Under the pieces are notes generated by a model, which did not search any database, had not been told where the DNA came from, and saw only the letters and a program-made list of their open reading frames with translations. This document shows positions 1,180-47,243 of a stretch of 48,228 nucleotides of DNA, piece after piece (the stretch's first letter is position 1; every line of letters starts with the position of its first letter). Source of the DNA: Welwitschia mirabilis (taxonomy: Eukaryota); assembly GCA_051453625.1 (NCBI GenBank), contig JBOZIK010000001.1, forward strand, positions 47,994,801 through 48,043,028, in the 5' to 3' direction. The position numbers were made by a program, and so were the translations under genes.

Positions 1180-3591
1180 ATGTGACTGGATGCTGAGGGA
1201 GAGACCAAAAGGATAGTTGAAGAGATTTAAAATCAATATGATGTACTCTTTCTCTAATATTTCTATATAAAGGCTTAAACAATATTAAGACTTACATGAA
1301 GGACTAGAGAAATAAGGGCAATCAAAGACTTGAATTAAAAGAGGGTCTGGAGAAAGAATTATAAGAGATCTAAGCAGAACAGGAAAGTGGAGGCGATTAG
1401 GACATCCTTCGCAACAAGGAATATAGATGCCTTGTGATGCTTTAAGAAATAAACATGAATAAGAAGCGCTATTGGAGGGAAAGATCCAGAATTAAGTGGC
1501 TTAAAGAAGGGGATAATCATACTAAATAGTTATTCTAGCAAACTAACCAACACAAGATAAATAACAGAATTAGGAGGCTTACAATCAGGGAGTAAGTAAT
1601 TGATAATGAAGAAGATATGGCCAAGGAAATGCAGACCCACTTCAAGAACGTGTGGGAGTGGAAAGATATCACCCCGACCTTATTCCAGAAGACAAGAAAA
1701 TTTCTGATGAGGATAATGCTCACCTAATTAAACCACTAGTTAGAGAAGAATTCTAGATAACCTTGTAATATATAAAGAGCAATAGAGGTCTAGGGCCAAA
1801 TGGGTGGCCAGTAGAACTACTTAAGACCTATTTCTCCATTATGGAAGGTAACCTTCATGATGTTATGCAAGATTTTTAACAACAGATGCATTCTTATGGA
1901 GATGAATATAACTAGGGTTATTCTTATCCCTAATCACAGGACTATAGACCTCTAGGTATCTACAATGTTCTATATTGGATCTTCAAAAAAAATAATGGTG
2001 GGCCATATTTCCCCTCTTCTTTCCAAAGTGATCTTCGAGAACTAAGCTGGCTTCATCCATTTTAGGTACAAGATCAAGTCCTCCTAACTAATAAAATCAT
2101 TCATTCAGTTAAAAAGCATAACTTTTCTTTATGTATTACTAAATTAGACATAGTAAAAGCCTATGATTTTGTAATCTAAAAAACTTTAGGTTGTATCCTT
2201 AAGAAAATTAAATTTAACTCTAACATCACAAACTTATGGCTTGATATGTAAGCTTCTGCTAAGTTTATATTGGATGTTAACATCTATAGATGTAGATATT
2301 TTTTAGTAGGTTGAGGATTAAGGCAAGAGGATCCATTATCCCCATACCTCTTTCTATTCATTATGAACGTTTCATAGGGATTTCTCAGAAGCAATGCAGT
2401 CATAATAATTAAATTAAAATAGCAAGTCAAATGTTCATTAACAACCAATATGTAGATGACATAATTATTATAACTTAAACCTCCTGCCAACAGGCTAGAG
2501 CTATCAAAAATTCCATGAATCTCTTCACAGATGCTATAAGACTCCAAACTAATTGGAATAAGTCTCGAATTCATGTTTTTGACAAAAGCATCACCAAGAA
2601 GGATGAAATAGGCAGAATTTTAAACACCAAAATGGAAGATCTTCAAGACATCTACTTAGGAATTCCCCTTAGAAACTAGTATGAGTCTCTAACCTGTAAC
2701 TTTATCTTGAAGTGAATTCAAAGAAAATGAAATGCATGGCAGAATAAATTTTTCTCTTGGAAATCCAAGATCATCCCAGCAAATACCTAGCTAATTACAT
2801 CCTTCAGCTACATAGACTCTATTATCAATCCCTTTAAATTTATAATCAAAAAAATTAATAAAATGCTAAAGGACTTCATTTGATTGGAAGACAAGAATAG
2901 AAGACGCATCCACCTTTGTAAGTAGGAGCTCATTGCTCACCCCTAGTAGGTAGGAGGCTAGAGAATTCATAGTCCAGAAGATTGTCTCTTCACTAAAGCT
3001 CACAAAATAATCAAAAGACTACTTAAGGGTGGTCAATCATGGAGTGACCTACTCTATTATAAGTATCCAAGTTCAAGCTCAAGCGAAGGGGAGTTCCACC
3101 TTAGGAAATATCTTTCTAACATCAGAAGAAATCTGATAAAGCTAAACATCTCTAATGAAGACACAACCAAAATGATTTTCCTTATAAAATATGATAAAAA
3201 TAGGGCCTATAAAAGTTTTTAAGGGGGATGGATCCATGACAAGATTAAGATTTTCTACTAGTTGAAGGACTGCAATTGATTATTAATAAGAGATTAATTG
3301 CTTAAACGTGGCATTCAAGTTACTACTAATTGTTCAATCTGTCAGTCAAGTCAATAAGATGTACCACACCTATTTCATTAATGAAAATGGAGTCAAATTT
3401 AATGAAATTAATGAAAAATTACTAGAAGACTAGAAAAGTAATTAAGACACAATTGAAGGATAGGATAGGCCTGAGGTTGTGGTAGATATGGTGTACTCAT
3501 AATGATTTGATTTTCAATAATGCTCCTCTTTTCATTTCTTATAAATACTGTTAGGAGAATCAGATGGTACCATTCACAAATTTGGACAGCT
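1180..3591 (+). pseudogene. LINE ORF2 remnant (reverse transcriptase + zf-RVT), many stops and frameshifts
   Basis: Manual translation: RSRIKWLKEGDNHTK (~1482), GPNGWPVE (~1793), DYRPLGIYNVLY (~1940), KLDIVKAYDFV (~2141), GLRQEDPLSPYLF (~2315), QYVDD (~2446), YLGIPL (~2653), CSICQS..DVPHLF (~3331), W*IWCTHNDLIFNN (~3480). Confidence 0.92.
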
Positions 3592-4850
3592 ATGGAGGTC
3601 ACACCAACGTCTAAACTACTAAATCTGAGCTTGTTCGAAGGATATCTGATCCTTTGGGATAAGTTGCAGGCCCTAGGTTGGGAATCACTTTTACACAAAT
3701 TGAAAGGCGAGCCCAAGGCTGATATCACCCCATTCTACAGAAAATGGAAAGGGTACAAAATTACTTTTAGACAAATCTCAGTTAAAGTTACAGAAGAATC
3801 CCTTTCCTACCTGCTGGAAATCCCTATGGAATGGGAGAGAATTCCTCTCAAAAGTATAGAATAAAGGGAGGCTTCCCTTTTTTTTAGGAGGTGTCCCTAA
3901 GTTATCAAGTGGACACATTAGCCAGAAGGTGCTTTCTCCCCCGTAGGGTTTAGGTGTAAAGATCGTAGATAGATACTTCATTTAGTCTGGGTGTTGTTTT
4001 GAGCTTTTAAGGTTACACTTTATCTTTCTCAAGGCCTAATACCTAGGGAGTCAAGTTAATTTACCCCATTTCTTCATCTAAATGCTATGATGAAAGAATA
4101 TTATAAGGCATTTAGGACTTGTTATGGTCGTATGGAGAACCGCAAGGGATCTAAAAGTGAGGAGGCCCCCTCCCCTTTCCCTCGGCGAAGGGCTTCGAAT
4201 GATGCCTAGCAAACCAGAGGAAAAAAGAAGAAAAGAGATAAGAATGACAAAGATTCTCAACATGATGGGGATAATGAGCCAGGAGGCTCCCAGTTTCTAA
4301 GAAGGGCAACTCCACCTCCACCCCAAGAGACTCTTATAGAGGAAGTGATTCCATCCCCAATGCAGAAAGAGGGAAAATTCTAGTCTGAACTAGACCAAGA
4401 GTAAACCCCCGTAGAAGTGCAAGGAGAGGAGAATTTACATCCAGAGAAAGGCCAGGAGGACCCCCCTCAGAAGAATGTTGATAGCCCCAAACACAGTAAC
4501 CAGACAGAATCTCAGTCTAATTCTGAATCCACCTTAGAAGAATGAAATCAAGCAATACATGAGGATATTAACATGGATCATGCTAGGAGAGAGAAGTTTT
4601 GTTAGCCATAATCCATGGAATTAAGATGTGCTCTTTCTTAACCCTCATAATCTCTCATAGATTTCCATTAGATGTTATTAAATTAAGCTTTCAAAAGAAG
4701 ACCCTTAAACTTTATCCCAACAAAAACCAAGCAAGGGCAAAGGAATTTAAAGAGGTAAATTAGGCTTTCTAGGTCTTGGTAGATGAATTGGGATGATTCC
4801 TAATTTAGTACAAGCATAGCTACCTAATTCCTAATTACAAGGGATATTAA
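3592..4850 (+). pseudogene. LINE extra ORF ('ORF3') copy A: putative plant-transposon-protein-like domain, acidic/Pro-rich linker, C-terminal J-domain
   Basis: MEVTPTSKLL..LGWESLLHKLKGEPKADITPFY..VTEESLSYLLEIP..GLGVKIVDRYFI..QVNLPHF..RHLGLV; the C-terminus reads MCSFLTLIISHRFPLDVIKLSFQKKTLKLYPNKNQARAKEFKEVN*AF*VL..PNYKGY* (stop 4848-4850). Homologous to 23310-24528. Confidence 0.8.
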
Positions 4851-5400
4851 TCATATGCTTCTTATAGTTTAGATTAGTTCTTCTATAACTATGCCACGTT
4901 CTATTTTAGTCTTAGGAGCTAGGGATTTTCACCCTCATTTTTGTTGTTAACATATTATGTCTTATTTCTAGTATGTTTGCATAAATTTGTAGGCTGGTTT
5001 TTATCATTTCTAGATTTACATGTAATCCCCAATATAGGCGCTTTCATCACTCCTTATAACTATTACTCTTTTAATATAATACTTGGTTTCTTTTTCAAAA
5101 AGAGGAAAAAACAAAAAAGACCAACAGTAGCCAAAAAGCAATTTGCCAACCGCTTATTATCTAACTCCTCAACATCTGAGATTAGTTTTTGATCCCTCTT
5201 CGCTCAAGAATGGCTTTAACCAGACATATTAATTTTCAGCTTAAACTTTTATGGATGCTTCATGTTGATGAAACAACCAAATGAAACAACTTTTTTGAGG
5301 CTCTTGATTGAAAAGAGATTTCACCGAGTTGCAATAGCAGCTGCCTCATTAAATATCGCACGTGGAAGAGAAAATTTAGAAACAAGCGAAAGAAACGGAC

Positions 5401-7973: not shown

Positions 7974-8800
7974 TGTGATACCCTCTTTTATCTTACCCTA
8001 ATTAAGCACTATTTTTTTTAACTTTCTTTCTTTTTTAATATTTTTACCTGATAAACACAGCGAAACCTAGGACTAAATTCCGCTTACTCCTTAATTAGAA
8101 TTTCCCTATTCTAAAAAATAATTAATTTCTAGGTTATCTCGTTTTACAACCAATAGCGATGTCATAAGTTTGTGTCCTTCATTTCTTCCTTGTTTTTTCG
8201 TCACATAAAAGATATTCTATGAATAGTTGAGGAGATGTAAACTTCTTGTCAACATAAATAGATAAATTTTAAGGATAATACCTAATCAATATAATAGAAG
8301 ATTACAACTCCAATTAATGGCATTCCAACTCAATATTTGGCCATCCTTCAAATGTGAGTTGGTTCTAAGTCAAGTTCTAAACTATACAAACATGGTTGGG
8401 CTCAACTCTATAGGCTTTCACTTCATCTCGATATACCACTAATACAGGTGACAAGTAGTACATGAGGTGGATGCATGCTTACAAATTAACCTCGCTTCCT
8501 TGAAGCATCTCTGAATGGTACAACATGATCCATCAATGTCCAGGGCTCAAGATATTAAGTTGGAGTAAGTTCATACATGGGTAGGATAGGATAGTGGTGA
8601 TTAAATCCACTTCCAGAAGGGTATTATAAAAAATGTGATGCAATTCACCTTGGTGATGAAATCCAAGTATGGGAATGAACATTATTAAAATTATCTTAAT
8701 TTGTCCTATTCGATAAATACATTATACAAATGCATGCAAACAATTCTAACCAATGTGGATATTTAATGAATAACTTACCTAGTTATAATAGTACTAATTA
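7974..8800. mobile_element. Gypsy-type LTR fragment (terminus TGTGATACCC), same family as 1-250
   Basis: TG..ATACCC terminus at 7974; 8190-8440 matches 1-250; ~8727-8780 resembles ~18701-18755. The right boundary is uncertain. Confidence 0.45.
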
Positions 8801-10990: not shown

Positions 10991-11675
10991 TCTATCTAAG
11001 CATAAAATCCATCATAAACTTTCTACTACTTATCATTCCTAAACAAATGGCTAAGTTAAAGTAACTAATAGAGAAATTAATAAAATATTAATAAAAATTA
11101 TAAATTTAAAGAAAATAGTTTGGGTTGAAAAATTAAGTGAAGCTTTGTAATCCTATGGAATAGCTTGGAAACATAGTACACGATTTACACCATATGAAAT
11201 GATTTATGGAAAAAAGGGCCATTTTACGAATTAAATTTATAATAAAAATCTTTCAATTAGCTAGAGAACTTAGATGCAAATTAGATAAATCTCATGAAGA
11301 ATGGATAGAAAATATGAATGTTTTAAACGGAATGAAAAAAAAGGCCCTCTTCTGTAAATAACTAATACAACATAATACTAAAGTATATCATAATACTAAA
11401 ATAAGAAAAATTAATTTCAAGTAGGAGATTGAATATTAGTCTTTGAACATAAAAAGATTCATTCAAAACAAAGTAAGAAAAAAATTGGCAAGGGCCTTAC
11501 ATTATAACAAAAATTTTAGAAAATGAAACCATCGAAGTATATGACCCTAGTGAAAAAGTAACTTATCAAATTAATGGACAAAAAATGAGAATGTATTATG
11601 AAAATAGATCTTTACTCCACTATCTAGGAAATCCCTATAGGATGGAAAAAAAAAATGCTTCCACTCAACTTATAA
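10991..11675 (+). pseudogene. Gypsy integrase core/C-terminus remnant
   Basis: LSTTYHS*TNG*VKVTNREINKIL..WVEKLSEAL*SY..FTPYEMIYGK; GPY/F module WQGPYIITKI (~11487); ends LPLNL* at 11675. Confidence 0.88.
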
Positions 11676-14600
11676 ATATAACTAGATTAGGTAATAACAT
11701 CATAATTATTTCTTTAAAGATAATTTAAACTACCAATTTATTAAAGTTTTTAAAGTAAATTGAAGTGATTTTTAGATTAAAAAAGCTAGCTTTATAAGTC
11801 TTTAATAGTAGATTAGACATCATTCATACCAAAGAGGACCAAAGATGCATCTTCCATCATATGTTAGAATATATTTAAAAAATAAATAAATAAATACATA
11901 CCATAATGTTCTATTGCAAGTGCACTAGGGCAAATATTTCTGAGGGGGCCTTTGATAGTGTAATACGGGATCTGTGAGAATTGCACTAGGGGGTTAGTTG
12001 ATTATAATCTAGATTTGGAAAATCTTATGGATCCTTACTCCTCTAATAGTGATTGCACTCTCCTCATTATAGATAAATAGTAAAGTTTGGATAATAATGA
12101 GTTAAGGAACTATTGTATTCTAAGAGTTATCTGAGACATAGCTAGTTGCTAAGACTAAACATTATCCATTATAACCACTACTATATAATCTAAAATCCTA
12201 TTCTAATATGTGATAAAATATGGGTCAAGGAACCTCTAGTTAAATTTTGGTTACTCATTAAATTTTATTTAGCTAAGGGTAAAATCTGCTTTGTTTTAAA
12301 ATCATTTAGAATTGCTATGTTAATTCGATGAATTGTTTAGGGAAAATTCTCTTTACTAAAACTATTATAATCCTTTATAAATAGAAAATAATTTTAAGAA
12401 AACTTTATTGATAATAATAAATAGAAGATTTATTAAATAAGATAAATTATTACATGATCATAAAAAGAAACTCTCCAAAACATAACAAACTCTAGCTTAA
12501 GAAGCTTAATAGCTGAAGGAAAAAAATAAAGTAACCACATGACTACCCTAAAACTAATTCTTCAAGTAGTTAGAGAATTTATTTTTTCTGCTAGAATGCC
12601 TACTTTTAGAAGATTTAGCATCACTTTCAGAAGGAGGTAATAATTATATCTCACTTAATGATTCTGTCAGCAGGTATGGATGTACATGCTCAAAATTCTA
12701 ATATGGTTCTATATTTCATATCATATTCTCTAAATTCTCCTTATTAAAACTCTAGGTAGCTAAGCTAAGCGTAGGATTAGTATAAAGCAGCTTATCAACT
12801 TTTCTCTCTAATACTTATATTTTCCTAGCTAATTTTCCTAAGAAAACATCATAAGCTAAGCTCTTTTGATTAACCTATTGATGTGGTTTTTTATCCTAAT
12901 CCTCAAATACTCATCCATCAAGTGATAAATCATAGAGCCAAGCTTATAGGGATGATCCCATTCTCAAATTATTTCTTACCATTTTCTATGATGAATTTAT
13001 CCAAAGTGTCTAAGACTCTAGCAGTTGATTTATAGCTGGAAAAAGAGAGAATAGTGAACCTCATTGTCATACTTAATAGTAATTTGAGGTGGGTAGGGTT
13101 TTATACTTCTAGTACACATGTCTATCTAAGTTAAGCCTAGCTTAAAAACACAGTGTTTTACTTTTGTAATACCAGAGGTAGAAATAGGTGAGTAAGGAGT
13201 GGATGCCATAATGATTGAGTACCAAAAAAAAAGAAAAGTTGTTAAATATTATTAGAAGGAAACTTTAAAGCTTAATGTGAAGAATGGTGGAACTCTTTAA
13301 TTAAGGATGACATTTATAAGAAAAAGCGACAGATGTAATTCATTACAAAAGTTTTAGTTACATGTGTTTACTAGTTAAGTAAAGTTAATGATCAAGTTAC
13401 ATACATGTCTTACATCACTTCTTTGAGTGTTAGGTATTCACTATAGATCTCAGTGTTAAAATAGAAAGTAAAGATTTCCTATACTAATCAAGACTCAACC
13501 TGAAGTTGAAACTTAAACTCAATATATAATCAATCTAGTTTTTTTTTTAAATTCCTCATAGTTATAAATTGTGAAGAGATTTGCATAAACTAGACTATTT
13601 TAATGATCTCTAGGTGGCAAGCTGAAATTCCACACATTATATAACTTAAGATTTTATCTTACTTATATTAATTATACTTATAGAGATGATGGTTACTTAT
13701 GTTTATAAAAAAATCTTTTTGAATTTTAATAAATTCTTCTATTAAGATTGAGTTATAATTATTTGGTTGACTAATAGTAACTTTAACTATATTTCAAACC
13801 AGCTAGATAAATAAATAAAAACCATCTCTATAAGCTTTAAATTGAAAATGCCTATTTGACTAATACCATCTCAAATTTGAAACTTTGAATCAGATTTTAA
13901 GCTAACTAGATAAATGTAAAATGCATCTTCTTAAGTTTGATAATTAAATACATCTACATAATTCAAGACTACTAGTTGACTGATACTAGCTCAATGTTTA
14001 AACTTTAAGATAAATTTCAAGCTAATACTTTATAACAGGATGAATGAGAGAACTACACTATAATAGGATAAGCCAGTATAAACCCAGAACTAAAATCCTA
14101 GATTTAACCTTTTTCATTAAGTTCTAGAGAACTTAAGAATCTTCAAAAATCCTTTTCAAATCCTTTACAAGCCTTGTAAGCAAGATTCAATGATTCTCAT
14201 AAAAAATGCTTAAGTTTTCTATGATCCTTATTGAATCCTTTATCTATGAAGAACAATGAGCACTTAAATATAAAGATACCTTCATCTTTCCTCTATCTCA
14301 AGCTCATTCTTAATGACCCTCCCACATTCTTGATGACTCTTATTAAGTTTCCACTAATGACTGACTATCACATCACCTTGATTACGTAAGAACTATCTTT
14401 CATAAACCTTTATTTATTAAATCATGCATAATTACATATCATAAATTTGCTTAACATAAATTTATTTGAAATAATTTTAGATGGAGATTTTAAGTTTTTC
14501 TTAACATAAAAAATAAGTATATCCTTACCATTTTTCTTTTGTGAATTATAATTTCTCCCATGCACAATTTCTTTCTTTTAAATGATAGCTTAACTTCATG

Positions 14601-19136: not shown

Positions 19137-20237
19137 ATGGAGAAGACTCGGCTCTTTAAGGAGGGAAAAACCCTAATCTTAGACATAGAGAAAGATGCAT
19201 GCTTAGAAAAATAAAGAAACTTCAATATAGTTTAATTGACAAGTTTGTTTCATCCAGCACAAGACGAAGACTCAATCTCATTAGAGACTCAATAGTCACA
19301 AAATGGATAGGGGTTAGTAAAGTTAAGGTAATATCCCTATCAAAAGGATTAGTTCTCTTCCAATTTGATAACAAATGGGATCAAGATGAGGTAATCATAA
19401 GAGGACCATGAATTTTCGGAGTTAGAGGGTTAGCCCTAGCTAAATAAATGTCACGGGTGCAATTGAACTTAAATCTAATTAAAAAGCTATCAATATGGAT
19501 TTTCATTCATAATTTTCCTCTAGAATTTTAGGATAAAGAACTATTAAAGAAAATTGCTTCTTAGTTTAAAGAATTAATAAAATTGGATAGGATAAACATA
19601 AAACAAATAAGGTTGCTCCTGGCAAGATATTGTATATCGATAAGTATTAAAAAAACAAAGGAAATTTAATACATGAAGTTTAGATTTAAATGGAGTACAT
19701 ACAATCTCAAAGTCACTTACAAGAACCTTCCAGTTATATGTGAGACATGTGGAAAGTCTAGGCACATCTTAGGAAGATGCATGATAGTAGAAAAGAGATA
19801 TTCCCATTGTGGGAGAAAAGGTTAAAAAAAGGATGAATGCAGAAAATATTTATTAACATCAAAGGAAAATAGAAGAATACATGCTCTTTTTATGATAAGA
19901 GAAGGCATAATCAGAATAATTACTAGTATAAACAAAAGAAAGATAAAATGGTAGAGAACACTACAGTCTATCCTAAAGAAAATAAGGAAAAGATCAAAGG
20001 ATATAATTCCTTTTAACAACTAATGGAGGAAGAGCCTAAAGGTACTCAGCAATGCCAGAATCCAATAAATACAAATGAGTTAAATAATGTTGAAATTCAA
20101 ATGAAGACAAACCTAGTAATAGAATTCTTTTAAACAAGAAAACCACAAAAATGGTGGCCAACAACTCCCAACTAACCAGCAAAGACATGTTGAAAAAAGG
20201 CCAAGGGGCCTCCAGAAAGGGGCAAAAACAAACTTGA
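19137..20237 (+). pseudogene. LINE ORF1 remnant (DUF4283 + zf-CCHC_4)
   Basis: SLIDKF..KWIG..SLSKGLVLFQFDNKWDQDEVIIRGP*IF..IWIFIHNFPLEF* and YKNLPVICETCGKSRHILGRC (~19718-19780). Confidence 0.85.
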
Positions 20238-23200
20238 TGAATTGTCTCACTTGAAGTTATAAGGGATTAGGGTCCTCCTATTAAAAAAAAAATTAGATAT
20301 TTGATCAATAAATTTAATATCAGCTTAGTCTATTTATAGAAAACAAATATGTGAGGTGTTATGAAATTAGATAATTTTTAGAAATAGTGGAACATTTTCA
20401 CCTCTACTATGTGAGGAAACGCAGGAGGTCTTATGACTCTTAAGAATAAAGAGGCAGAACTAGTTAACAGCAGTAAAAATCACTTAACTATATTTCTAAA
20501 AGAATAAGGATGAATCATTACAAATTTTTATGACTCTTAGAACAACCTAAACAAAGCCTCCATGTTGGAGGGCCTTCAGATGGTAGTAGCAGATAAGGCC
20601 AAGTGGCTAATAGTGGGGGATTTTAGTTAATGTCTCCACCATTAGGAGAAAATGGAGGGAAAAAATTAGAACAGTAGGGGAGTAGCAATTCTTAGATATT
20701 TTATGGTATAAAATACTTTATCAGACATACTGCTAATAGGATGCAAGTATACCTAGTCTAATAGAAGGACGGGAGGTAATCAGGTGATGTCTAGGATAGA
20801 CCAAATCCTTGCTGAAAAAGACATAGTAAAGCTTTTAATATAAGCTTGTGTTCTGAATAGAATGGCCTTAGATCATTAGCTAATTATATATAGAAAGGGG
20901 AGATAATGTCTCCTAGAGCCTCTTTCCAAATGAAATAGTATTAGATCACAAGTGCAAAAACCAAAAAGTTACTCGAGAATATCTGAAATTAATAAAATGG
21001 CATTCACCCTTTCACCTTTCTCTATAGAGGCTTAAACACCCTCAAAGCTCATATTAATAATTGGAAAAGGAAGAATAAGAAGAGATTCAAATCAAAAAAA
21101 TAGCTAGAGAAAGAGTTATAGAAAATTCAAGTTAAGCAAGAAGACAAAGAAGGTCAGGATTATATCCATAATAGAGAATATAGATGCCTCATGGAACTTT
21201 AAGAAATAAATGTAAATGAGAAAAATTATTAAAGAGAAAGATCAAGGATTAAATGACTTAAAAGGAGGGATACACATACCAAATTTTTCTTCTAGTAGGC
21301 TAACTATCACAGAGCAAATAACAGAATAAAAAGGCTTATCATTAGGGAATAGGTAATCGAAAATGAAGAGGAAATAACCAAGGAAATGCATATCCATCTC
21401 AAGGAAACATGGGAGTGGGACAATATTACCTATCCCAAAAGATAACAAAATTTCTGATAAGAATAATGCCCACTTAAGTAAACATTTAATCAAAGAAGAA
21501 ATTCAGTCAGCAATGAAATCAATGAAGAAAATATAGCTCTAGGATTACATCGTTGGCTAGTTAAATTTTTCAAGACCTACTTTCCTATTATGTAGAATAG
21601 TCTTCATAATGTAATGCAAGATATCCTTAATAGTAAACACATTCCCAAGGAGATAAATAGAAATAGGGTTATCCTCATCACCAAAAAATAGGACGCTTAT
21701 AGACCAAAAGGCTACAAACCATTAGGCATCTGCAATGTGCTATATAGAATCTTTGCAAAAATAATGATAGGCCATATCACCTCCCTGCTCCCCAAGGTAA
21801 TTTTTGAGAACCAATCTAGCTTCATCTGATTTAGGTACATTCAAGACCAAATTCTCCTAACTCACAAAATTATTCATTTTATTAAAAAGCATAAATTTCC
21901 TTTACTCATTATACAATTAGATATATAAAAGGCTTACAACTCTATTAGCTGATAATATTTAGGTTGTATTCTCAAAAAAACTGATTTCAATCAATACATC
22001 ATTAACTTATGCTTAGATATGTAATCTTCTGCTGAATTTAAATTGAAGGTTAATAGTTATATATCCAAATTTTTTTAGTAGGTTGAAGATTAAGATAAAG
22101 GGACCCTTTATCTGCATACCTCTTTATTTTTGTTATGAATGTTTTATAGGAATTTTTTAAAAGTAATGGAGTTACAAGCATCAAAATAGGAAGTTAAATG
22201 TTTATGAACAACCATGATGTTGATAACACAATTATCATGAATCAAGTCTCTTGCTAGTAAGCCAGAGCTATCAAGAACTCTATGAATCTTTTTGCAGAAG
22301 TCACAAGCCTCCAAATTAATTAGAATAAATTTAGAATTTACCTAGTAGATAAAAGCATAACTAGAAGGGGTGATATCGTCAAAATCCTAAATGCCAAATT
22401 AGGATATCTTTAGGATATCTACTTGGGAATCCCTCTATGGAATTCACATAAAACTCTAACTTGGAATTTCATCCTAGAATTAATCTAGAGGAGATGCAAT
22501 ATCTAGTAGAATAAATTCCTTTTGTCCAAAGCAAATATCATCTTAGTAAATACTTGTTTAATTTCTTCTTTCAAATACATTGCCTCTAATATTGCTCCTC
22601 CCCCTCCTTCCCCCAAAAGTTCATAATCAAAAAATCAATAGAATTTTGAAGACTTCATTTGATCAGGAGGTAAAAATAGAAGACATATTCATCTTTGTAA
22701 ATGGAAGCTTATTACTTGTCCTAAAGATTCAGGAGGTTGGAAAGTCTAAAGGTCAAAGGATTGCCTCCTCATAGGCACTCATAAAGTCCTCAAAAGACTT
22801 TTCATAGGAGGTTAACCTTGGAGTAACCTCATTAACTATAAGTACCCCACTTGAAGTTATGAAGGAGGGGAGTCCTATCTTAGAAAACACCTTTACAGTG
22901 CTAGAAGAAACTTGATGAACCTAAATATTTGTGGTGATGGCATAATCAAAATGATTCTTATCAATAAATATGGAAAAAATGAGACTTACAAAAATTTTTG
23001 AAAGAGACAAATTCTAGATAAAATTAAGATCTTTTGTTGGCTAAAGGATCATAACTGAATTCTCACCAGGGACTAACTTCTCAAGTATGGCATTAAAGTT
23101 AATTCTAACTATCCAATATGTCAATATTGTTAAGAAGATGCTCAACATCTTCTCAAATCAATGCAGATGAAGCTTAGAATTAATGATAGTTATGACAAGT

Positions 23201-23309
23201 TATTAGTGGTAGATTTGGTGCACTCACAATGAAGTAATATTCAATAATGTTTCACTTCCATTCATACAGCAAGAAAGATTAAATGGTATCATTTCCACAT
23301 AGGGCAGCA
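20237..23309 (+). pseudogene. LINE ORF2 remnant (EEP endonuclease, RT, zf-RVT)
   Basis: MNCLT*SYKGLG start; WLIVGDF (~20604); YT*SNRR..SRIDQIL; RSRIK*LK..DTHTKFF; YKPLGICNVLYRIFAK; LDI*KAY; DPLSAYLF; YLGIPL; W*IWCTHNEVIFNN. Confidence 0.92.
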
Positions 23310-24528
23310 ATGGAGCAACTCTAACAATTAAACTATTAGATCCAGACTCATTAGAAGGGTGTCCTATGCTCTAAGACAAGGTATAGGATGGGGAGATCTC
23401 CTACACAAGTTAAAAGAAGAACCTAAGGCTGATATCACCTATTCTACAAAAGATGGAGAGGGAAAAGAGCCACAATCAGAAGAGTTTTCATCGACACTAC
23501 AAAAGACTACATTTCTCACTTTTGGACATTCCAATGGTAGGGAAAAGAATCCCCCTTAAGAGAAGAAAGTACTGGAAGCCTCCTACTTCTTCCCAGGTAG
23601 CATTCCAAAACTAGCTAGTCATTATATTAGTCATAAGATGCTTTTGCCCCCATGGGGCCTAGGGGTTAAGATGATATATCGCTACTTTATTCACTCTTGC
23701 TATTGTTCAAAACTGTCAGGGCTGCATTTCACCTTTCTCAAGGCCTTAGACTTGGGGTATCAAGTTAACCTTCCCCACTTCTCTATTCAAGTGCTTCAAC
23801 AAAAAGATTCAACGAGGCATTTAGGACTAGTTATAGCTATTTAAAAGACTACTAAGGACCAGAGGATAAGAAAGGCCCCTTCTCCCCCTCCTCCTCAGTG
23901 ATAGAATTTAGTGGAGACTTCTTCTAAGAAAAAAAAAATCAAAGAAAAGGACAAAAACTAATGAGGATTCTCATTCCGAGAAGGATTTCAAGTAAAGAAG
24001 CCCCCATTCTTAGAGAGAGATGACTCTGTCCTTGGAAGTCCAAGCAAAGAAGGAGATCTCATCCCCAATGTGAAAAGAGATAATTCAAGAAGACTCCCCA
24101 GCTGAAGCCAAGGATCAGCATCAAAGACCTCTAGAGCAAGGCCAAAAGACCCCCTCTTAGAAGGTAGAAAGTAGTTTCAATTATAGTTAGGAGTTAAATT
24201 GCTACTTCCACTTAGGTTCCTCCCTTAAAGATTAAAATTAAGATCCCCGTAAAGACATTGACATGGATCACGCAAAAACAAAAGTCTTACTAGCTACCAG
24301 TCATGGTCTAAAAATATGCCCCTTATTGACCCTAGGAGTTTCACATAGATCTTACCTGTAAGCCATTAATTTAAATTACCAAAAGAATGCTCTCAAGGCA
24401 AGAACCAAATAGTAGCTAGGTAGTTTAAGGAAGTAAACCAGGCATTTGAGGTATCAGTAAGTGAAATAGGTCGCTTTCTGGTTAAGCACCATCACAGTAA
24501 CCTCTCACCTAATTATAGGGGATATTAA
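23310..24528 (+). pseudogene. LINE extra ORF ('ORF3') copy B with C-terminal J-domain
   Basis: GWGDLLHKLKEEPKADIT..PPWGLGVKMIYRYFIHS..QVNLPHF..RHLGLV; the C-terminus reads ICPLLTLGVSHRSYL*AINLNYQKNALK[10-nt deletion]KNQIVAR*FKEVNQAFEV..PNYRGY* (stop 24526-24528). Confidence 0.82.
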
Positions 24529-27500
24529 TCCTCTATTTCTTCAAGTTATACATAGTTGTTTTTTAGTATTTTCTAGTCCATTATTAAGTTCAATAGTTAG
24601 TGGTATTTTCACCCCCACTTTTGCTTTATACCCAATAGGTTCTCATGATTTCTGTAGTTTGGTTTTTGCTTTACCAGTCAGGATTTTTATTCCCCTCAAT
24701 ATAAGGAATTTTCTCTCCCCATGTAAATTTTATTTTAATATAATTCTCTTTTTTTTTTAAAAAAAAAGNNNNNNNNNNNNNNNNNNNNNNNNNNNNNNNN
24801 NNNNNNNNNNNNNNNNNNNNNNNNNNNNNNNNNNNNNNNNNNNNNNNNNNNNNNNNNNNNNNNNNNNNNNNNNNNNNNNNNNNNNNNNNNNNNNNNNNNN
24901 NNNNNNNNNNNNNNNNNNNNNNNNNNNNNNNNNNNNNNNNNNNNNNNNNNNNNNNNNNNNNNNNNNNNNNNNNNNNNNNNNNNNNNNNNNNNNNNNNNNN
25001 NNNNNNNNNNNNNNNNNNNNNNNNNNNNNNNNNNNNNNNNNNNNNNNNNNNNNNNNNNNNNNNNNNNNNNNNNNNNNNNNNNNNNNNNNNNNNNNNNNNN
25101 NNNNNNNNNNNNNNNNNNNNNNNNNNNNNNNNNNNNNNNNNNNNNNNNNNNNNNNNNATATATATAGTATTAATAATATTACATAAAAAAATAATATTAA
25201 AGTACACACTTCTTAAGTAAGTGATCAAAAGAATTTCACTTATTATCTAAGAACAAAGGCCTTAATAATAAAAGCATAAATTATACTTTATTAAAGAACA
25301 TTTAAAAAGATAATATAAAATGAAATTATTTTTAATATTATCCTTTTTAAATTATTTAATTGTTACAATAATTTTATTGAATAAATTTTATATGATTAAC
25401 GACATTAATTATAGATTTATTTTACCTTTATAAGAGATGTTATACTAAAAATTAATACTTTATTTTTTTACACTAAAAGATAAATTATGATAAATATTAT
25501 TAAAGTAGACTTATGATATAGTCTCTAGAAATTAACTTTATCAAGTTTAGATTCCTATAGTTATATTTTCTAAGATTATAATATAATTGTAAAGATTATT
25601 TAAATTTTTAGAGTTATTAAATTACCACACCACATTAAAAAGGTTATAACTTTTAAAATACTTCAAATTATTAAGTGATTGAGAACTCCCTAAAAATATT
25701 ATTTAATTATCTATAATGTAGACTAGCCATTTATTACAAACTATAAATTATTAATTTTATAACTAAAATAAATTACTTGTTATTTTCTATTTTATTTTAA
25801 GTTATTTCATAAAATAATTTTTAAAAATGTACTAGATCTTTAAAAAAAATACTATTTTTAAATTTATAATCTTAAAATACTTTTAAAATTACCAAAAAAA
25901 ATCTCATTAAACTTTATTTAATATATAAGAGTTTATAATATTTTTAAGTTATGCCACCTTTTGAGAATTTTGAACTTTAGCTATAATATAAACATAAAAA
26001 TATAGAAATAAATTTAAGAAACTATAGTTGATAAAATTAATATAAATATCTAATATAAATAGTCCATGTAATATAAAAAATAAATTTTAACTACTCCAAA
26101 TCAACATCAGTTAAGGAAAAGTAATGTGTAAGATTAATTTAAAATAAACAAATTCAATGAGCCTTAGGATTAACATAAAGGAGTAGCTAGCGTAAATGAG
26201 ATTAAGGATCAGATAATTAATCCTAAGTAGAGGATTGTGATGCATATTTGATACATAATAAAACTATAAAAATCATTCAATCTTTCATAATGCACAATGA
26301 AAATGATTACCTCAATATTAAATAGAATTCCTTGATCCCTTGGCCAAAATTTTCCATTGGTAATCTTATCAACTAAATATGTAAAGAGATTTCTCAAACC
26401 TCTCCATCTTCTTGATTTGAATCTAATGGAATAAATAATCTTATTAAAATAAATTTTACAATAAGCATATGTAATGACCTAAAGCAATAATATAGCATGC
26501 CACTAACATTCTTAAAAATGAAAAAAAATAAGTAGAGGAAACCTACTTGAAAATGTAATGATTAAAAATTTCTATGAGATAAAGAATGGATTAGGTTAAT
26601 TTATAAGTTCTAATTTTGAAGTTCTANNNNNNNNNNCTAGTATCCGAGCTCTAAGCTCCAAGCTCTATACTTCAAACCAAGAGGATGAAAAAGAAACAAG
26701 ATAAACATGAAAGAATGAGAAGGAAATCTAATAGCATGAACTTTTATAAAAATGAAAAAATTGATTTACAAGAGAGGAAAGGGCTTTATTTATAGTAAAT
26801 AATAAGCTAAATTTCTTTGATTTAATTAGTTAAAAACCCTTAACATAATTGTATTCATAAGGTAATATTATCATATTAAATTAGGTAAGATTACCCATAT
26901 TGAATTAGATAAGATTAATTATTTATTAATTGGACGAGCTTAAGTAATAAGTGACATTGATGTATGAATTATATGAACACATTATCTTTATAACTCATAT
27001 ACCTCCTATCCAAGATGATTAATACTCTTACCTTAATAAACAAGGTCAATTACATACCTCAGTTCCTCATCCTAGTTCCTTTTTAATTCTTCATAGGCTC
27101 ATAACCATATTTAACCAATTCAAAAACATAATTTAAATAATGAGTAATATGCATTAAAGGAACACTGATGCACAAATTTCAAAACTACCATGTGTAATAA
27201 TGAGATAATTTTTTCAACCCCAATAATGAATAAAATAAATATTTTATAAACTAATTAATTTTATAAATATCAAGAATCATAAAAATCATGGGAGAGTAAA
27301 ATATACTCTTTCATTCTTATTAGTTTAGAGATAAGAGTACACATCCTTATTCAAATGATCATTAATTTCAAGATATATCAAATTCATTAACAAAAACATA
27401 AAAAAGAAAGTATCATAATAGAATGGAGTACACTCAATCTTGTTATCTACTTCTTTTATCAACTATATTACTCATTTATTCTTACTAAGTATTTTCATTT

Positions 27501-37784: not shown

Positions 37785-39178
37785 TATTAGATTACATTTT
37801 GTCAATTGATGTCAAACTAATGTTTTCTATATAGCAAATTTTGTGTATCTTGTGCAGAAGATGTTAATCACTTACAAGTTTAATGATGAAATCAAAGCTA
37901 TTAAATTCTAATCACTAGAAACCTGTCAAGTTTACTTACCCTCTTGAGGGGTCGATCAGACTTTCAAGGGGTCGACCGCACCTATAGTAGACACTCAAAA
38001 TTGAACTAAATTCAGAGGGATCAACTAGATTTTTGATGAGATCGACTAGACCTATGATGGGGTCAACCAGATCTGTGAAGCTTAGAACAGTACTCCTAAA
38101 CTGATTGTTAAGGGTTCGACTGGATCTTTGAAGGGGTCAACTGGACCTGAGCACTGTGTAGTTAATACCCTTGAGCCGAATGTCATGGGGTTGATCAGAC
38201 ATCTGAAGGGATCGACTGGACCTGATGCAAGAAATTGAAATGATCTTTAATAAGGACTAGCGAGTGACTAAATATAATGACGGGCAACTAGATTGGAGTT
38301 GACCGAACCCTAAGGGGTCAATCGGACATGGAGCCATAAGAAACTTGAGCAACCAAAAATTTCACTTAGGCAACCTGTGTAAGTCATGACACCAGATGGA
38401 GTCGAGCGGACTTTGGAGGGGTTGATCGGCTAGAATGAAACTAAAATTTTTTATTTATTTTGTATCCATTAGATAGCCATTTTTTAGTCATTTATAATCA
38501 TTAGAAGCGTGTTTTCAAATGAAATAAACCTTAAAAGCCTTCCAATATAAATAGTCAAGAGAGAGATGACTAAAGAATCTTTTTGACTCATGAAATAGTA
38601 TTAAAGTCTTATGATATTCACTATTAAATCTTGGCATTTATACTTCTAACTAAGGAAGATCTATCATCTATATCAAGAATGAGTGATATTTATGCATCTT
38701 AACATTATTGCATCACTATTTTACATTGTGAAAGTTTGAGACTTATCCTACAAAAGTCCGTTAAAAGGTTAAGAGTAAGCCTGAAAAAGTTCGTTTAAAG
38801 GTTAAGACTAAGCCTGATAAAGTTTGTTCAAAGATTGATACTAAGCTTGAAAAAGTATGTTTGTAAAGGTTACAAGTGAACCTAAAATACTTAAAGGAGT
38901 AATGAAGATATGGATCAAGCTTGGTGATAAGCTAATCATCGAGAGTAGAGTAAGAGGTTTCTCGAACCACTATAAATCCTACATGCATCTATTTGGTATT
39001 TTGTGCTTTCAGTTAGTTTCATTTTTTTAAATACTTTTAGCTTTTCTTTATATGCATAAATTCAATTAGTAAATTATCTTGAGCAAGCTTTTAATACATC
39101 ATTGGTTTATTTACTTCATTTGATCTTAATTTTTAAAAGAACCTATTCATCCCTCCTCTAGGGTTCTCGATCCTATCA
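37785..39178 (+). repeat. 5' LTR (~1.39 kb) of Sirevirus-like element
   Basis: Matches 43704-44621; TATA-like 'aatataaatag' at ~38544; 3' motif CCTATTCATCCCTCCTCTAGG; ends TCA before the PBS. Confidence 0.88.
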
Positions 39179-39242
39179 ATTGGTGTCAGAGCTAAGTTAA
39201 ACCTTCTTCAAATTTTAACCAATCTAGAATTTATAACCTTAC

Positions 39243-41602
39243 AATGAATAATCCATCTAATGATTTTCTACTAGTCATCCATCCATGTTTGACAGGCTAA
39301 ACTATGCTTATTAAAAAGCTAGAATGAGAATTTTTCTTAGATCTTTAGATCCCAATATAGAAGAAGTTACATATAAGGATTATTCTATGCCTATGTCATC
39401 AAAAACGGATGTTAACAGTGATACCATCTTAGTTCCCAGAACTCGAGATTAATGGACTACCATTGACAAAATCAAAGCTACCACAAATGCACATGCTCTT
39501 AATGTAATATTTTGTATAGCCTATGCAGATGAGTTTAAATGTATAGTGAATTGTGATCATGCTAAAAAAGCTTAAGATATTATTGAGGTAGCACATAAAG
39601 GAACTTCAACTGTAAAGTAAGCAAAACTTCAAATGCTTATTTATAAATTTAAAGACATCCATATGGATGAGGAGAAGACTTTGCAAAAGTTCTTTGTGAG
39701 ACTCACTAATATTGTAAACTCTATGGAAAGCCTTAGAGAATGATTGAATAAAGGAAAGGTGGTTAAAAAGGTATTGAGATATCTACCAAAGAGATTTAAA
39801 CCAAAGGTCATAGCTATCATAAAGAGCAAGAATATAAATATAATGGCACTAAAAGAGCTATAATGTAATCTACAAATTTATGAACATAAATTTGTTAAAG
39901 ATAAGAAGAAAGGTATTGCCTTAAAATGTGTGTAGGAAGAATACAGGTCGAAAAGATCAGACGAGGACTTGGATGATGATGAAGTAACTCTCCTAGTCAG
40001 GAGATTCAGAAAGTTTTTAGATAAAAATAAAAAGAAAGGTGAGTCAAGTAAAAACTCAAAAATAAGTCATATAAAATACAAAAATGAGCAAGAAAAAGAT
40101 AAAAAAATCTAATGCTACTCATACAAAGGACTTGGTCATATGGCACATGAGTGCCCTAACACAAGAAGAGACAACAAGAAAACAAGGAATCCCTCTTTTA
40201 CTACAATACGGGACCATGAGGATGATCANNNNNNNNNNNNNNNNNNNNNNNNNNNNNNNNNNNNNNNNNNNNNNNNNNNNNNNNNNNNNNNNNNNNNNNN
40301 NNNNNNNNNNNNNNNNNNNNNNNNNNNNNNNNNNNNNNNNNNNNNNNNNNNNNNNNNNNNNNNNNNNNNNNNNNNNNNNNNNNNNNNNNNNNNNNNNNNN
40401 NNNNNNNNNNNNNNNNNNNNNNNNNNNNNNNNNNNNNNNNNNNNNNNNNNNNNNNNNNNNNNNNNNNNNNNNNNNNNNNNNNNNNNNNNNNNNNNNNNNN
40501 NNNNNNNNAAGGACTTGGTCATATGGCACATGAGTGCCCTAACACAAGAAGAGATAACAAGAAAACAAGGAATCCCTCTTTTACTACAATACGGGACAAT
40601 GAGGATGACAATGATGACAGTTGTTTAGGTTAAGAATCAGATAGAGGCATAAGATTATCTTTTATGGTGATTGTGCCTTCTCTCAAAAACTTACCTAGTA
40701 CATCAAAGCCTAATGACTTGAACATAGTCAATGAAAAAGAGAATGAACTAGAGAATACATGTCAGGAGCTATATAAAGAATGTGAAAAGCTAGCTAAAAG
40801 AATAAATGATCTAAACAAAGAAGTGAAGACTCTCACAAAAGAGAAGGAGAAAATGGAAATAAAGTACAATGTACTAAAATCTAACAACAACAATCTATTA
40901 TCACAGGTAAAATATCTATCTTTCTTTGTAAATAAATTTTCTGATGGTTCTTCTAAGTTAGAATAGATGCTTGGAGTACAAAAACCTACTAGAGATAAAT
41001 CAAGTATTGGTTTTATTTCACAAAATCCACAATAATAAGTAAACAGGTAATGTAAGTATACTTCTAGAGTTTTATGTAATTTTTGTGGTAAAACTGGACA
41101 TTTAAAGTTATTTTTCAATATTATAAAGTTAATGATTTTCTTGGATTATGCAAATTCTTTACCATTTAAATTCATTCCTAAAAGAAGTGTACCACATAAG
41201 TCTAACAAGACTAAGTGAGTAAGAGCTAACAGTCTCAAAAGTCTTATAACATAAATAGCTCTCAAAGGATAAAGTACAAATATGATAGAAGAAAGATCAA
41301 ATTTTCAACACCTGAGAAGTATTGATAAGGGAGATGTCATTTTTTAAAACAATAAAAAGATAAAGATATAAGGTAGAGGATGCATCAAAGAACGTAAGTT
41401 ATCTAAACTTAATTATGTGCTATATGTGAGTGGTTTGAAGTATAACTTATTGAGTATCACTCAATTGTATGATAAAGGTCACAAAATAATATTCGAAAAA
41501 TCAAAATGTAAAATTGTAAATGTAAAAATGGATTTTATTATTCTTGTCATAAATGAAGTAGATAATATTTATAAAATAGATACTTATTTAATGATTAGTT
41601 AA
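39243..41602 (+). pseudogene. Copia gag-protease remnant
   Basis: FDRLNYAY*KARMRIFLRSLD; VKKVLRYLPKRFKPKV; knuckles CYSYKGLGHMAHEC (~40113) and CNFCGKTGH (~41075); protease VLYVSGLKYNLLSITQL (41417). No integrase or RT motifs follow. Confidence 0.88.
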
Positions 41603-42101
41603 ATTATATGAATGACGATATTGAAAATAGAAATGTTAGCTTAAATTTTAGTAAAACTAAATGTTTTTTAGAAAATTCTAAAGTAACACCCCATTTCTGG
41701 AACTTTCTTATCAATTACAAACATGAACTAGGGGTTAACTCATTGTCCTCTGGCTAATTATAGGGTAGTTGACTGGATGTGGTCAGTCAACTAGCCTAAA
41801 AGCCTAGTCACTTGGACCTCTTCCTATGCCATAGACTTGCATCTTGACAGGTCAACTGAAAATATGATCGATCGACCGGACCTGATAAATTACAATGTAG
41901 AAGTATCATCAGTGGACCCGATTTCATTCTTCAAGTTACCCTATTTTACCTTGTTTATAAAATAAAGAGGCCCCTAAATCATTTTTATTATGTTCTAGCC
42001 CTCTCTATCTCTTAGATCTAAAGCTTATCCTTCTAGATCCAGAGCTTTACTTATAGATCTAGTGTTATTCTCTCATTTTTCTTACCTCTAGGCTCTTAGA
42101 A

Positions 42102-43150
42102 ATGGCTGAAAGCTTATCAAGAAAGAGAGTTAAGGAAGCTTCATTAATAGATACTGCCATTTTCTACCAAGGGATGTCTGAGGAAGACATTGAAAAGTTT
42201 TTAGAAAAGTTTAAAAAGAAGCCTGTTTGTCAAGAATGGTCTGTGACAACCTTAGAGCTTAGAGAGCTTAGGGAAGTTATCCAGCTCCTGAGAAATTAGG
42301 ATCTTAACTATTTTCTAGATGTTTCTGGATCTGCTTATCCATTTCTTACTCACATGTTCTATTGCAATGCAACTTTTGATCATGATTTAGGAACCCTTGA
42401 AATCCTTATTTTGGGAAATCAGCTAAGGGTTACTACAAATCTAATCTCTAATCTGACTGATCTTCCCAGAGTTAACTATGAAGAGTTTTGGCCTCTTTGA
42501 GATACCATGGAAGCTAAGCCTGTAGTGACAAAGAAGATCTATAATAAGACTCACTCCTAGAAACACGTCATTTCCACTTCTTTATTAACACCTAAATACC
42601 ACTTTATTCATTTGATTTTCACTTATAATTTTCTGCCATTAGCTGGTCATCGTGATGAGGCCTCATCTATAGAGCATATTTAATGTATCCGGTAGGGACA
42701 GAACATTCTATTGATGCTTCTGCCATCATACTGAAGAATATTATCTCTCAATTGGAGTATTACAGGACTAGGTCCTTATCCTACTTTGTGCTTATCACAA
42801 ATTTGTACCATCATTTTTGTGTACCCTTTCATCTGAAACTTGAAATCCTTCAACTTATGGCATCCATTGGGTATGCAACTCTATCTCGTATGCACATCTT
42901 TTCCCCTTCCAAGAAGTCCTCAAAGTCACCCTCTTTAAAGAAATCCTCTTTTGATGAAACTCTTTCATATCTAAGGCGGATTGATTCTCATACCAGACAT
43001 ATAAAGAAAGCACTCATAAAAACAGGGTATGACATTGCTAATACTTCAACAGAGGCCATGAGCTCAAAGTACATAGAAGAAGATGATGAAGAAGAAGATT
43101 CAGAAGAAGATTCTGAATAGGAATAAAAAGAGGAAGAGGAATCTGATTAG
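42102..43150 (+). pseudogene. env-like/putative plant transposon protein ORF (PF20167-like), nearly intact
   Basis: Reads through 2 TAGs and 1 frameshift (~42680) to the TAG at 43120, with a further decayed acidic tail to 43150: ..AYPFLTHMFYCNA..LRVTTNLISNLTDLP..NFLPLAGHRDE..IDASAIILKNI..LSYFVLIT.. Confidence 0.78.
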
Positions 43151-43703
43151 AACCTTGATTATGTTTTGCTTATGAGTTTTTGTTCTCTCTTTTGTTATTG
43201 ATGTCAAAAGAGGGAGAATTAATTGTTTATTATTGTTTGTTACTTATGCTTTTAAATGTAGTATACTCTTGATAAGCACTTTTATTTTATAATGCTTACA
43301 TATATTTAATGGAATCAACATGCACTTAGTTCTATGTTTTCAATTGGTATCTAAAATCCTTTTGTGAAAATCATATGAGCTTAACATTTTCCCAATGATG
43401 AATATTAAAGTTTTGAATGATTATCCCATAAATTCAAATGTTGATATCCCATATTGGAAATGAACTCTAAAAAGTGTCAATGATCAATATGTTAAATGGT
43501 TTATGTGATTACATTATGCTTTTTATAAAATTTGTGTTCTCAACTCTCTAAGTGTGCATCCTAAAATTGGTTTTATTATTAGCATAAAATTTGACTATTA
43601 ATGTCTTATAAAAAATGATAGGCATTTTGTAAGGGGGAGTTTCCTAAGTCCTAAATATTTTTACAACCAAGTATTATTTGCCATCAATGTTAAAGAGGAA
43701 GAT

Positions 43704-44621
43704 TATTAGATTATATTTTGTCAATTGATGTCAAACTAATGTTTTCTNNNNNNNNNNNNNNNNNNATCTTGTGCAGAAGATGTTAATCTCTTGCAAGTTT
43801 AATGATGAATCCAAAACTGTCAAGCTCTAATCACTAAAAACCTGTAAAGTTTACTTACCTTCTTAAGAGGTCAACTGAACTTTCAAGGGATCGACCGCAC
43901 CTAAAACAAAAACTCAAAATTGAGCTGAATTCAAAAGGGTTGACTAGATTTCTGATGGGGGTGACCAGATCTATAATGGGATTGTGAACCTGAGAATAGT
44001 AATCTTGAACTAATTATTAAGGGTTTAACCAGATCTTTAAAGGGGTCAACCGGACCTGAGCACTATGTAGCTAATACCCCTGAGCTAATTGTTATGGGGT
44101 TAACCGAACACCTGAAAGGGTCGATCGAACATGATGCAGAAAATTAGAATAATCTTTTATTAGGACTAGCAAGCGACAGAATATAATGGTGAGTGATCAG
44201 ATTGGAGTCGACTAGACCCTGAGGGATTGACTAGACATGGAGCCTTAAGAAACTAGAATGACCGAAAATTTTACTCAGGCGACCTGTGTAAGTCACAGCA
44301 CCAGATGAGGTCGACTAGACTTTTGAGGGGTCAACTGGCTGAAACAAAATTAAAATTTTCTATCCATTTTGTCTTCATTATGCATCCGTTAGATAGCCAN
44401 NNNNNNNNNNNNNNNNNNNNNNNNNNNNNNNNNNNNNNNNNNNNNNNNNNNNNNNNNNNNNNNNNNNNNNNNNNNNNNNNNNNNNNNNNNNNNNNNNNNG
44501 GGGTCAACTGGCTGAAACAAAATTAAAATTTTCTATCCATTTTGTATTCATTATGCATCCGTTAGATAGCCATTTTTTAGTTGTTTATAGCTATTGAAAG
44601 CACATTTTTAAATGAAATAAA
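43704..44621 (+). repeat. 3' LTR of Sirevirus-like element, truncated
   Basis: Colinear with 37785-38528, then switches to gypsy integrase at 'aaatgaaataaa|ttcttcatcc'. Confidence 0.82.
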
Positions 44622-46147: not shown

Positions 46148-46184
<37 letters not shown>

Positions 46185-46881: not shown

Positions 46882-47100
46882 AATAAATTTCAAAATTAGA
46901 TAATAAAGGACATGTCATTTCTTTAAAGTTTATTCAGTCCACTAATTTACTAGATTGTTTAAAGTAAATGTTATGATTATAAAGCAAGAAGTTGACTTAG
47001 TAAGTTTTCAACAAGGAATTGTGCATTATCTTTATTAATAGGATTGAGGAAACACATTTCATCATAGAATCAAATACCTTCTGAATAATTTAAAAAATAA

Positions 47101-47240: not shown

Positions 47241-47243
<3 letters not shown>

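Follow-up and report, generated by a model that had tools for sequence, protein, structure and literature searches.

We analysed a stretch of 48,228 nucleotides (nt) of Welwitschia mirabilis DNA (contig JBOZIK010000001.1), hereafter called the window, which contains two decayed copies, A and B, of a plant L1-type long interspersed nuclear element (LINE). Near its 3' end, each copy carries a segment that resembles the J domain of Hsp40 co-chaperones. Judged by sequence, this segment is the last coding module of the LINE, and no free-standing gene or element. Its codons have been constrained across the divergence of the two copies as strongly as those of the reverse transcriptase (RT). We propose, with rather more confidence than doubt, that a lineage of L1-type plant LINEs possessed a J domain, of which the segment is the decayed remnant and which would have been under selection while this lineage was active; that it carried the HPD motif and recruited Hsp70 is what we infer. 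The selected, LINE-borne J domain is of greater interest than the tripeptide YPN, which copy A shows in place of HPD. The LINE features described below lie on the plus strand, and all positions are those of the window.

The J-domain segment

The preliminary description of this DNA had quoted a J-domain-like string from copy A, which agrees with the translation of positions 4626-4790 in every letter. The 84-amino-acid (aa) piece 4560-4811, with stops written as X, matches the Pfam family DnaJ (PF00226) with 28.8 bits and an E-value of 1.3e-6, the gathering cut-off being 27.8 bits; for an 87-aa piece of copy A the score was 28.7 bits. The match extends over 4644-4787 and covers profile positions 6-56 of 63. 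When all PDB sequences were searched with phmmer, 30 were found at E<=1, and all of these but one (2wqh, CTPR3Y3), 29 in number, are J-domain proteins, going by the names given by the depositors. The best matches are the J domains of class A/B Hsp40 proteins (dnj-12, 2och; human DNAJA1, 2m6y and 2lo1; yeast Sis1 and Ydj1), with E-values from 1.2e-4, reached by the top match 2och, to 1e-2. YPN falls on the HPD column in all four PDB alignments that were inspected. Three of them are ungapped (dnj-12 and the two DNAJA1 entries), with alignment running from helix II through helix III and with a post-motif loop of equal length; the fourth contains one gap, located behind the motif.

The spacing is likewise that of a J domain. 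The motif lies 20 residues behind the position of LGV, and the canonical J pattern has 20 residues between LGV and HPD. The loop before FKxI is as long in copy A as in solved J domains, and the spacing of the landmarks of helices I, II and III (LGV, basic helix II, motif, FKxhxxAYxVL) is canonical. The helix spacing that had been read from the letters alone is thus borne out by a DnaJ profile match above the cut-off and by mostly ungapped alignments to solved J domains. We therefore regard the copy A segment as a real J domain at the level of sequence, chance resemblance being excluded.

In copy A, the reading frame of the J domain (4573-4850) leads from a conserved ATG at 4573 to a TAA at 4848-4850 that is common to both copies. 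It continues for about 20 codons past the Pfam match, and the shared TAA can be read as the ancestral stop codon. An ATG at 4626 is no conserved start, as copy B has ATA there; the conserved reading begins further 5', at or before 4587. Four stops (4761, 4770, 4794 and 4806) interrupt the frame, as does a 2-nt indel at about 4584-4585. On the HPD column stand TAT (4713-4715), CCC (4716-4718) and AAC (4719-4721), that is, YPN at 4713-4721 according to both the codons and the PDB alignments. The first stop, TAG at 4761-4763, had been said to face a CAG (Q) codon in copy B, as the alignment confirms; the second, TAG at 4770-4772, faces GAG (E).

The corresponding frame of copy B (24263-24528, with its TAA at 24526-24528) has kept LGV, where copy A reads LII, and FKEVNQAFEV including NQAFEV. 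Conversely, copy A shows the consensus residues K, L and D where copy B has N, S and S. Such survival of different consensus residues in the two copies is as expected from independent decay of a better J domain. Between 24396 and 24397 copy B has suffered a 10-nt deletion, by which the H and P codons were lost and the frame was shifted. A splice-site reading at the end of the copy B J domain (GTAAGT) was considered and dropped, as the frame continues under selection to the common TAA.

Since no more than some 20 residues separate it from the stop, the J domain would be class-C-like. Unlike the class A/B Hsp40 proteins that match it best, it is without a G/F region, a zinc finger and a C-terminal substrate domain, shows YPN, and is encoded by a retrotransposon.

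The two LINE copies

Copy B (19271-24768) is a near full-length LINE with open reading frame 1 (ORF1), RVT_1, zf-RVT, a region that we call 'mid', a linker, the J domain and an A-rich end. Its ORF1 was recognised by a Pfam match to DUF4283 at 19271-19636 (58.6 bits, E 6.7e-16), a domain found in copy B only. RVT_1 follows at 21683-22024 (40.6 bits, cut-off 29.6, E 2.9e-10) and zf-RVT at 22966-23163 (29.0 bits, cut-off 27.5). DUF4283 is described as the dominant ORF1 domain in the text of a survey of plant L1 elements (PMC5203782), and its combination with RVT_1 and zf-RVT identifies copy B as a near full-length plant L1-type LINE. Copy A (1204-5119) contains RVT_1 (2063-2395; 25.9 bits, below the cut-off), zf-RVT (3226-3381; 19.8 bits), the mid region, the linker, the J domain and a tail. 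In a more sensitive comparison, homology begins at about 1204 in copy A and 20960 in copy B; since copy B continues 5' of this point into ORF1, copy A is 5'-truncated.

The overall identity of the copies is about 67%. Comparison of the window with itself aligned 1419-4125 with 21176-23834 (67.3% over 2751 columns) and 4564-4869 with 24254-24547 (63.4%). The copies are collinear from the RT through about 1.4 kb past the zf-RVT tail up to the A-rich end, and the J-like segment lies inside this common 3' extension, some 300 nt before the tail. In copy A, the 3' untranslated region (UTR) and the A-rich tail occupy 4851-5119, with the A-rich stretch at about 5096-5119; in copy B the A-rich end at 24768 abuts an N gap (24769-25157). 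Past the A-rich tail, the sensitive self-comparison of the window found no similarity between A and B. When the J and mid pieces were used as tblastn queries within the window, only copies A and B were recovered.

In the ORF2 frame, four in-frame stops are common to both copies (2872-3375 against 22651-23154). They stand at positions where we would presume codons for W or R, and TGG or CGA codons that decayed in parallel are their likely origin, which makes shared stops poor evidence for ancestral ORF ends in this DNA.

Copy A lies between two direct repeats, 12-250 and 8196-8439, which are 84% alike at a distance of 8.2 kb; the first is immediately followed by an N gap. They could represent long terminal repeats (LTRs), or else a short repeat that is present twice.

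Selection on the J codons

Differences between copies A and B were counted per codon position in ungapped blocks, and the ratio of nonsynonymous to synonymous differences per site (pN/pS) was calculated according to Nei and Gojobori. Three ORF2 blocks (copy A coordinates) provide the standard: 17, 12 and 37 differences at codon positions 1, 2 and 3 in 1419-1673 (pN/pS 0.33), 33, 30 and 68 in 2413-2835 (0.27), and 47, 44 and 81 in 2872-3375 (0.30). This pattern implies that A and B descend from LINE lineages that split while active and under selection.

The J codons behave in the same way. The N-terminal half (4587-4708) shows 11, 9 and 26 differences (one-sided p 0.001) and a pN/pS of 0.27 (bootstrap 0.17-0.42), and the C-terminal half (4719-4795) 8, 6 and 13 with the same ratio of 0.27 (bootstrap 0.09-0.67). 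Extended from 4719 to the common stop, the second part has 15, 8 and 22 differences, so that the whole J frame amounts to 26, 17 and 48 (p 1e-4). Read in the two wrong phases, the N-terminal half gives ratios of 1.15 and 1.59. The flanks show no periodicity in any phase: the linker (4172-4583) has pN/pS values of 0.94, 0.66 and 0.63, and the 3' UTR (4796-5065) values of 0.76, 1.02 and 0.86. At positions 1 and 2 taken together, 26% of the sites differ in the J frame, as compared with 42% for the non-coding DNA around it (Fisher p 5.5e-4). The periodicity is also present in transversions alone (5, 6 and 14 at positions 1, 2 and 3; p 0.016), and in the codon table runs of synonymous, third-position-only differences can be followed from about 4596 to the TAA at 4848-4850. 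The GC content of the J domain is flat over the codon positions (0.35/0.30/0.34), and faster decay of G/C-rich third positions is therefore no explanation for the pattern.

The divergence of the J codons, unlike that of the 3' UTR, is not what would be left by a captured fragment that was carried passively. The common junctions, together with the common non-coding 3' UTR, point to a single capture before the A and B lineages split. The simplest reading of this sequence comparison is that the J domain would have been a translated and useful part of the active element.

Was the ancestral motif HPD?

The preliminary description had suggested that YPN arose from a canonical and potentially active HPD by two transitions. 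The route holds at the level of codons, as TAT is one step from CAT (C>T at 4713) and AAC one step from GAC (G>A at 4719). Its premise that transitions dominate was likewise found correct, with 763 transitions against 395 transversions over 3539 aligned bases of A and B. Moreover, C4718 followed by A4719 has the appearance of a decayed CpG (C4718-G4719). CpG is scarce in the window, with an observed/expected ratio of 0.21, and of 31 CpGs present in either copy none is common to both. The P of the motif and the following KN are intact in copy A. Four stops in the J frame of this copy alone indicate that post-insertion damage of such density is normal here.

HPD is close to invariant among J domains, so that for a J domain under selection it is the expected loop; a purifying selection equal to that on the RT also makes a working motif in the active element more plausible. 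Copy B is unable to settle the matter, because of its 10-nt deletion and because the placement of this deletion is ambiguous by two bases. Under the MAFFT placement, the codon in the D column is GGC. If this is a remnant of the D codon, AAC in copy A and GGC in copy B are each one transition away from GAC, and also from AGC.

J-like proteins without HPD exist, and one may ask if the domain always lacked the motif, with YPN or some other loop and a role independent of stimulation of the Hsp70 ATPase. This would agree with the lack of HPD in either copy and with the deletion at the very site in copy B, but both mismatched residues are one transition away from HPD, one of them at a CpG, while P and KN are kept; given the many post-insertion stops in copy A, two further changes in nine bases are not unusual. 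We consider a domain that never had HPD unlikely. Given the rest of the analysis, we hold it highly probable that the ancestral motif was HPD, and the YPN of copy A would then most likely have arisen by ordinary decay of a dead element. Of the earlier claim, the J domain and the two transitions have stood, and the selection and the CpG site add to its plausibility, whereas HPD itself was never seen and copy B is deleted at this point.

Mid region and linker

A second part of the 3' extension resembles ORF2 in its pattern of differences. The mid region (3878-4171 in copy A, 23587-23880 in copy B) comprises 98 codons with 31, 22 and 51 differences at codon positions 1, 2 and 3 and a pN/pS of 0.28 (bootstrap 0.20-0.39), a purifying selection as strong as that on the RT. 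It matched no Pfam family and no PDB sequence. The 3' extension of both copies, scanned in all six frames, likewise gave no Pfam family (the J pieces were scanned separately). A resemblance of the mid region to RNase H or a plant-mobile-domain was noticed by eye, had no profile support and was discarded. From the ORF2 tail at 3479-3530, coding-like periodicity goes on without a break into 3539-3876, in frames picked after inspection.

Mid region and J domain are separated in copy A by an acidic, proline-rich and fast-diverging linker (4172-4583), the differences of which are, as given above, non-periodic (pN/pS 0.63-0.94). Its GC content is periodic (0.52/0.35/0.42) in the frame that enters the J domain directly in copy B. 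This periodic composition suggests that the linker was a disordered, fast-evolving part within one long ORF2. On the other hand, the ATG at 4573 is conserved in both copies, each of which has an in-frame stop 30 nt before it, and a small third ORF is therefore possible.

In the linker of copy A there are short, degenerate GCCAGGAGGCTCCC-like repeats at 4157-4170, 4278-4291 and 4451-4464, which suggest that the linker may have grown by internal duplication.

Proposed explanation and its alternatives

In our proposal, the coding region of this LINE lineage would extend past the zf-RVT tail into the mid region, the acidic linker and a C-terminal, class-C-like J domain. The J module would consist of about 65 residues and some 20 more up to the stop, behind which would lie a 3' UTR of roughly 250 nt and a tail of the poly(A) type. 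In active elements the product could have been either an ORF2 protein (ORF2p) that ends in the J domain or a separate polypeptide of about 90 aa starting at the conserved ATG 4573. A J domain bearing HPD would dock to the host Hsp70 and trigger its ATPase in the vicinity of the LINE protein or the ribonucleoprotein (RNP). The Hsp70 thus recruited might assist the folding of a very large multidomain protein, or the assembly or remodelling of the RNP. After insertion, both copies would have decayed neutrally. In copy A, a C>T change at 4713 would have turned H into Y and a G>A change of the CpG type at 4719 would have turned D into N, and in copy B the motif would have been removed by the 10-nt deletion.

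Several points weigh against this proposal. Only two copies are present in the window, both full of stops and frameshifts, and HPD is read in neither of them. The DnaJ match is borderline and falls under the cut-off when searched within the 2833-aa frame translation (22.3 bits, E 1.4e-4); the pieces of copy B alone gave no match in a Pfam search. Since pS is close to saturation (0.69-0.86), the pN/pS ratios are rough, and the frames for 3376-3876 were picked after inspection of the data. The in-frame stop in the linker, at 4543, is shared by the copies (TGA in A, TAA in B), which casts doubt on a continuous ORF over the linker, although a CGA codon that decayed in parallel in A and B would look no different. 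Target-site duplications around the copies were sought and none was convincing, and Pfam at E<=1 found no endonuclease domain in the three frames of 20050-21251. In that interval endonuclease-like strings, or what we take to be such, can be made out by eye in one frame, to which Pfam gave no match. Finally, an exhaustive phmmer search with the mid-to-J translation of copy B (390 aa) against 1.84 billion representative sequences found nothing at E<=0.001.

Flanking or foreign RNA sequence is known to travel with LINEs, which raises the question if the extension is a mere passenger: an exon or mRNA tail of a host J-protein gene, picked up a single time through 3' transduction or template switching, untranslated and never functional for the element. 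The length of the extension (about 1.4 kb after the zf-RVT tail), the lack of another Pfam domain in it and a linker diverging as if unconstrained would all be in keeping with this. A passenger should, however, resemble the 3' UTR (pN/pS 0.76-1.02, 42% of sites), yet the J codons show a pN/pS of 0.27 with 26% at positions 1 and 2, and a third-position excess (p 1e-4) as in the RT. We rate such a passenger as less likely still than a J domain that never had HPD.

Alternatively, a single long-lived LINE locus situated upstream of a host gene for a mid-linker-J protein might have transduced the same 3' sequence repeatedly, in which case the selection would be that on the host gene. Identical junctions and selection on both parts would be expected from this as well, and with two copies it is permitted. 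It would demand, however, that one LINE locus stayed active over a divergence of pS ~0.7-0.86. Besides, the coding-like periodicity running from 3479-3530 into 3539-3876 (in frames chosen post hoc) leaves no space for a LINE 3' UTR, a poly(A) site, a promoter and a 5' UTR, and the passage from linker to J domain shows no intron. We regard repeated transduction as quite improbable.

Segmental duplication of a dead LINE adjoining a host J-protein gene would fit the presence of just two copies within one 48-kb window and the failure to find target-site duplications. It has very little to commend it in the face of the purifying selection on the RT between the copies (pN/pS 0.27-0.33), which is not expected of a dead LINE, and of 5' ends that do not agree, copy A being truncated and copy B having ORF1, together with the absence of homology past the A-rich tail. 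As for a chance resemblance in AT-rich junk DNA, the borderline Pfam score and the many frames read by eye might invite it, but E-values of 1.3e-6 for the piece and 1.4e-4 for the 2833-aa frame, J-domain proteins making up 29 of the 30 PDB matches, and a codon periodicity in exactly the J frame that comes from an independent comparison make its probability negligible.

Searches for relatives and comparison with known systems

Beyond the exhaustive search, relatives of the LINE-borne J domain were sought by word-indexed searches against longer proteins. They gave 10 candidates for the J piece, 248 for a three-row J alignment (A2) and 785 for the RT-to-zf-RVT piece of the LINE, none of which scored. 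As even the RT-to-zf-RVT search was blank, this route is blind to plant LINE proteins, and its blanks are no evidence of rarity. Two scans of metagenome DNA with patterns conserved between A and B gave no match each. Taken together, these blanks, that of the exhaustive search included, carry hardly any weight for or against the family being rare. In full-text literature searches, no retrotransposon with a J domain came up among the matches listed.

Polyomavirus large and small T antigens possess their own HPD-bearing J domain, which harnesses the host Hsc70. They are likewise a case of a selfish element with a J domain, but belong to an animal DNA virus, carry the domain at the N-terminus and are unrelated to LINEs. 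In the survey text, which cites Smyshlyaev et al. 2013 on this point, plant L1 LINEs with an RNase H domain added in ORF2 are described (PMC5203782); there, too, an accessory domain lies downstream of the RT, and here a J domain and the mid region are found instead of RNase H. The main text of this survey of L1 elements in 503 genomes contains no occurrence of 'DnaJ', though its supplementary domain tables could hold one (PMC5203782). For insect R1 LINEs, a C-terminal SF1 helicase domain on ORF2 is reported (PMC4686597), which sets a precedent for a foreign domain at the C-terminus of ORF2, while clade, host and domain differ. In Arabidopsis, the J-domain protein SILENZIO is recruited by MBD5/6 and silences methylated transposable elements (TEs), and HSP70s have been linked to this process (PMC8616336). 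SILENZIO is a host repressor, unlike a J domain borne by the element. That the LINE J domain could mimic or titrate silencing of the SILENZIO type is a speculation by analogy.

Other repeats in the window

The window is AT-rich, with a GC content of 0.20-0.39 per 2 kb, and contains twelve N gaps. Of ORFs with at least 100 aa there are 17, short and scattered, several of them spanning runs of N.

Direct repeats at 37785-38528 and 43704-44621 are about 76-81% alike and 5.9 kb apart. A CCHC zinc knuckle is present in the internal part (39700-43300), which also matches Pol_BBD (41267-41479, E 4e-11), and the element at 37785-44621 looks like a decayed LTR retrotransposon of the Ty1/copia type by these features, although neither RT nor integrase was found in the three plus-strand frames scanned. 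Within it, a 100-nt stretch is present at 40126-40225 and 40509-40608 with 98% identity, flanking a gap of 280 N (40229-40508); this repeat is probably an assembly artefact.

A dispersed repeat of about 1 kb occurs in three copies (11016-12156, 45200-46358 and 46595-47565) with 71-82% identity. Two of the copies stand in tandem, 1027-1216 nt apart, and a long GA-rich microsatellite is found at 47103-47248.

Meaning for plant LINEs

More generally, the two copies raise the prospect of a plant L1 lineage that encodes its own J-domain co-chaperone, be it as part of ORF2 or in a third ORF, and keeps it by selection. Its service might be folding or assembly of ORF2p, remodelling of the RNP at the target site, or interference with the silencing of methylated TEs by J proteins and HSP70. 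To this wider claim we give an even chance of being right. LINEs are thought to depend on host chaperones that are recruited indirectly. If the claim is true, the present case would be the first retrotransposon-borne J domain of which we found any record, and it would show that Hsp70 recruitment can limit retrotransposition strongly enough to merit encoding. Plant L1 elements would gain a new accessory domain beside RNase H and RRM, with the equally selected mid region travelling along with it, and the exchange of HPD for QPD would offer a direct handle on the chaperone dependence of these elements.

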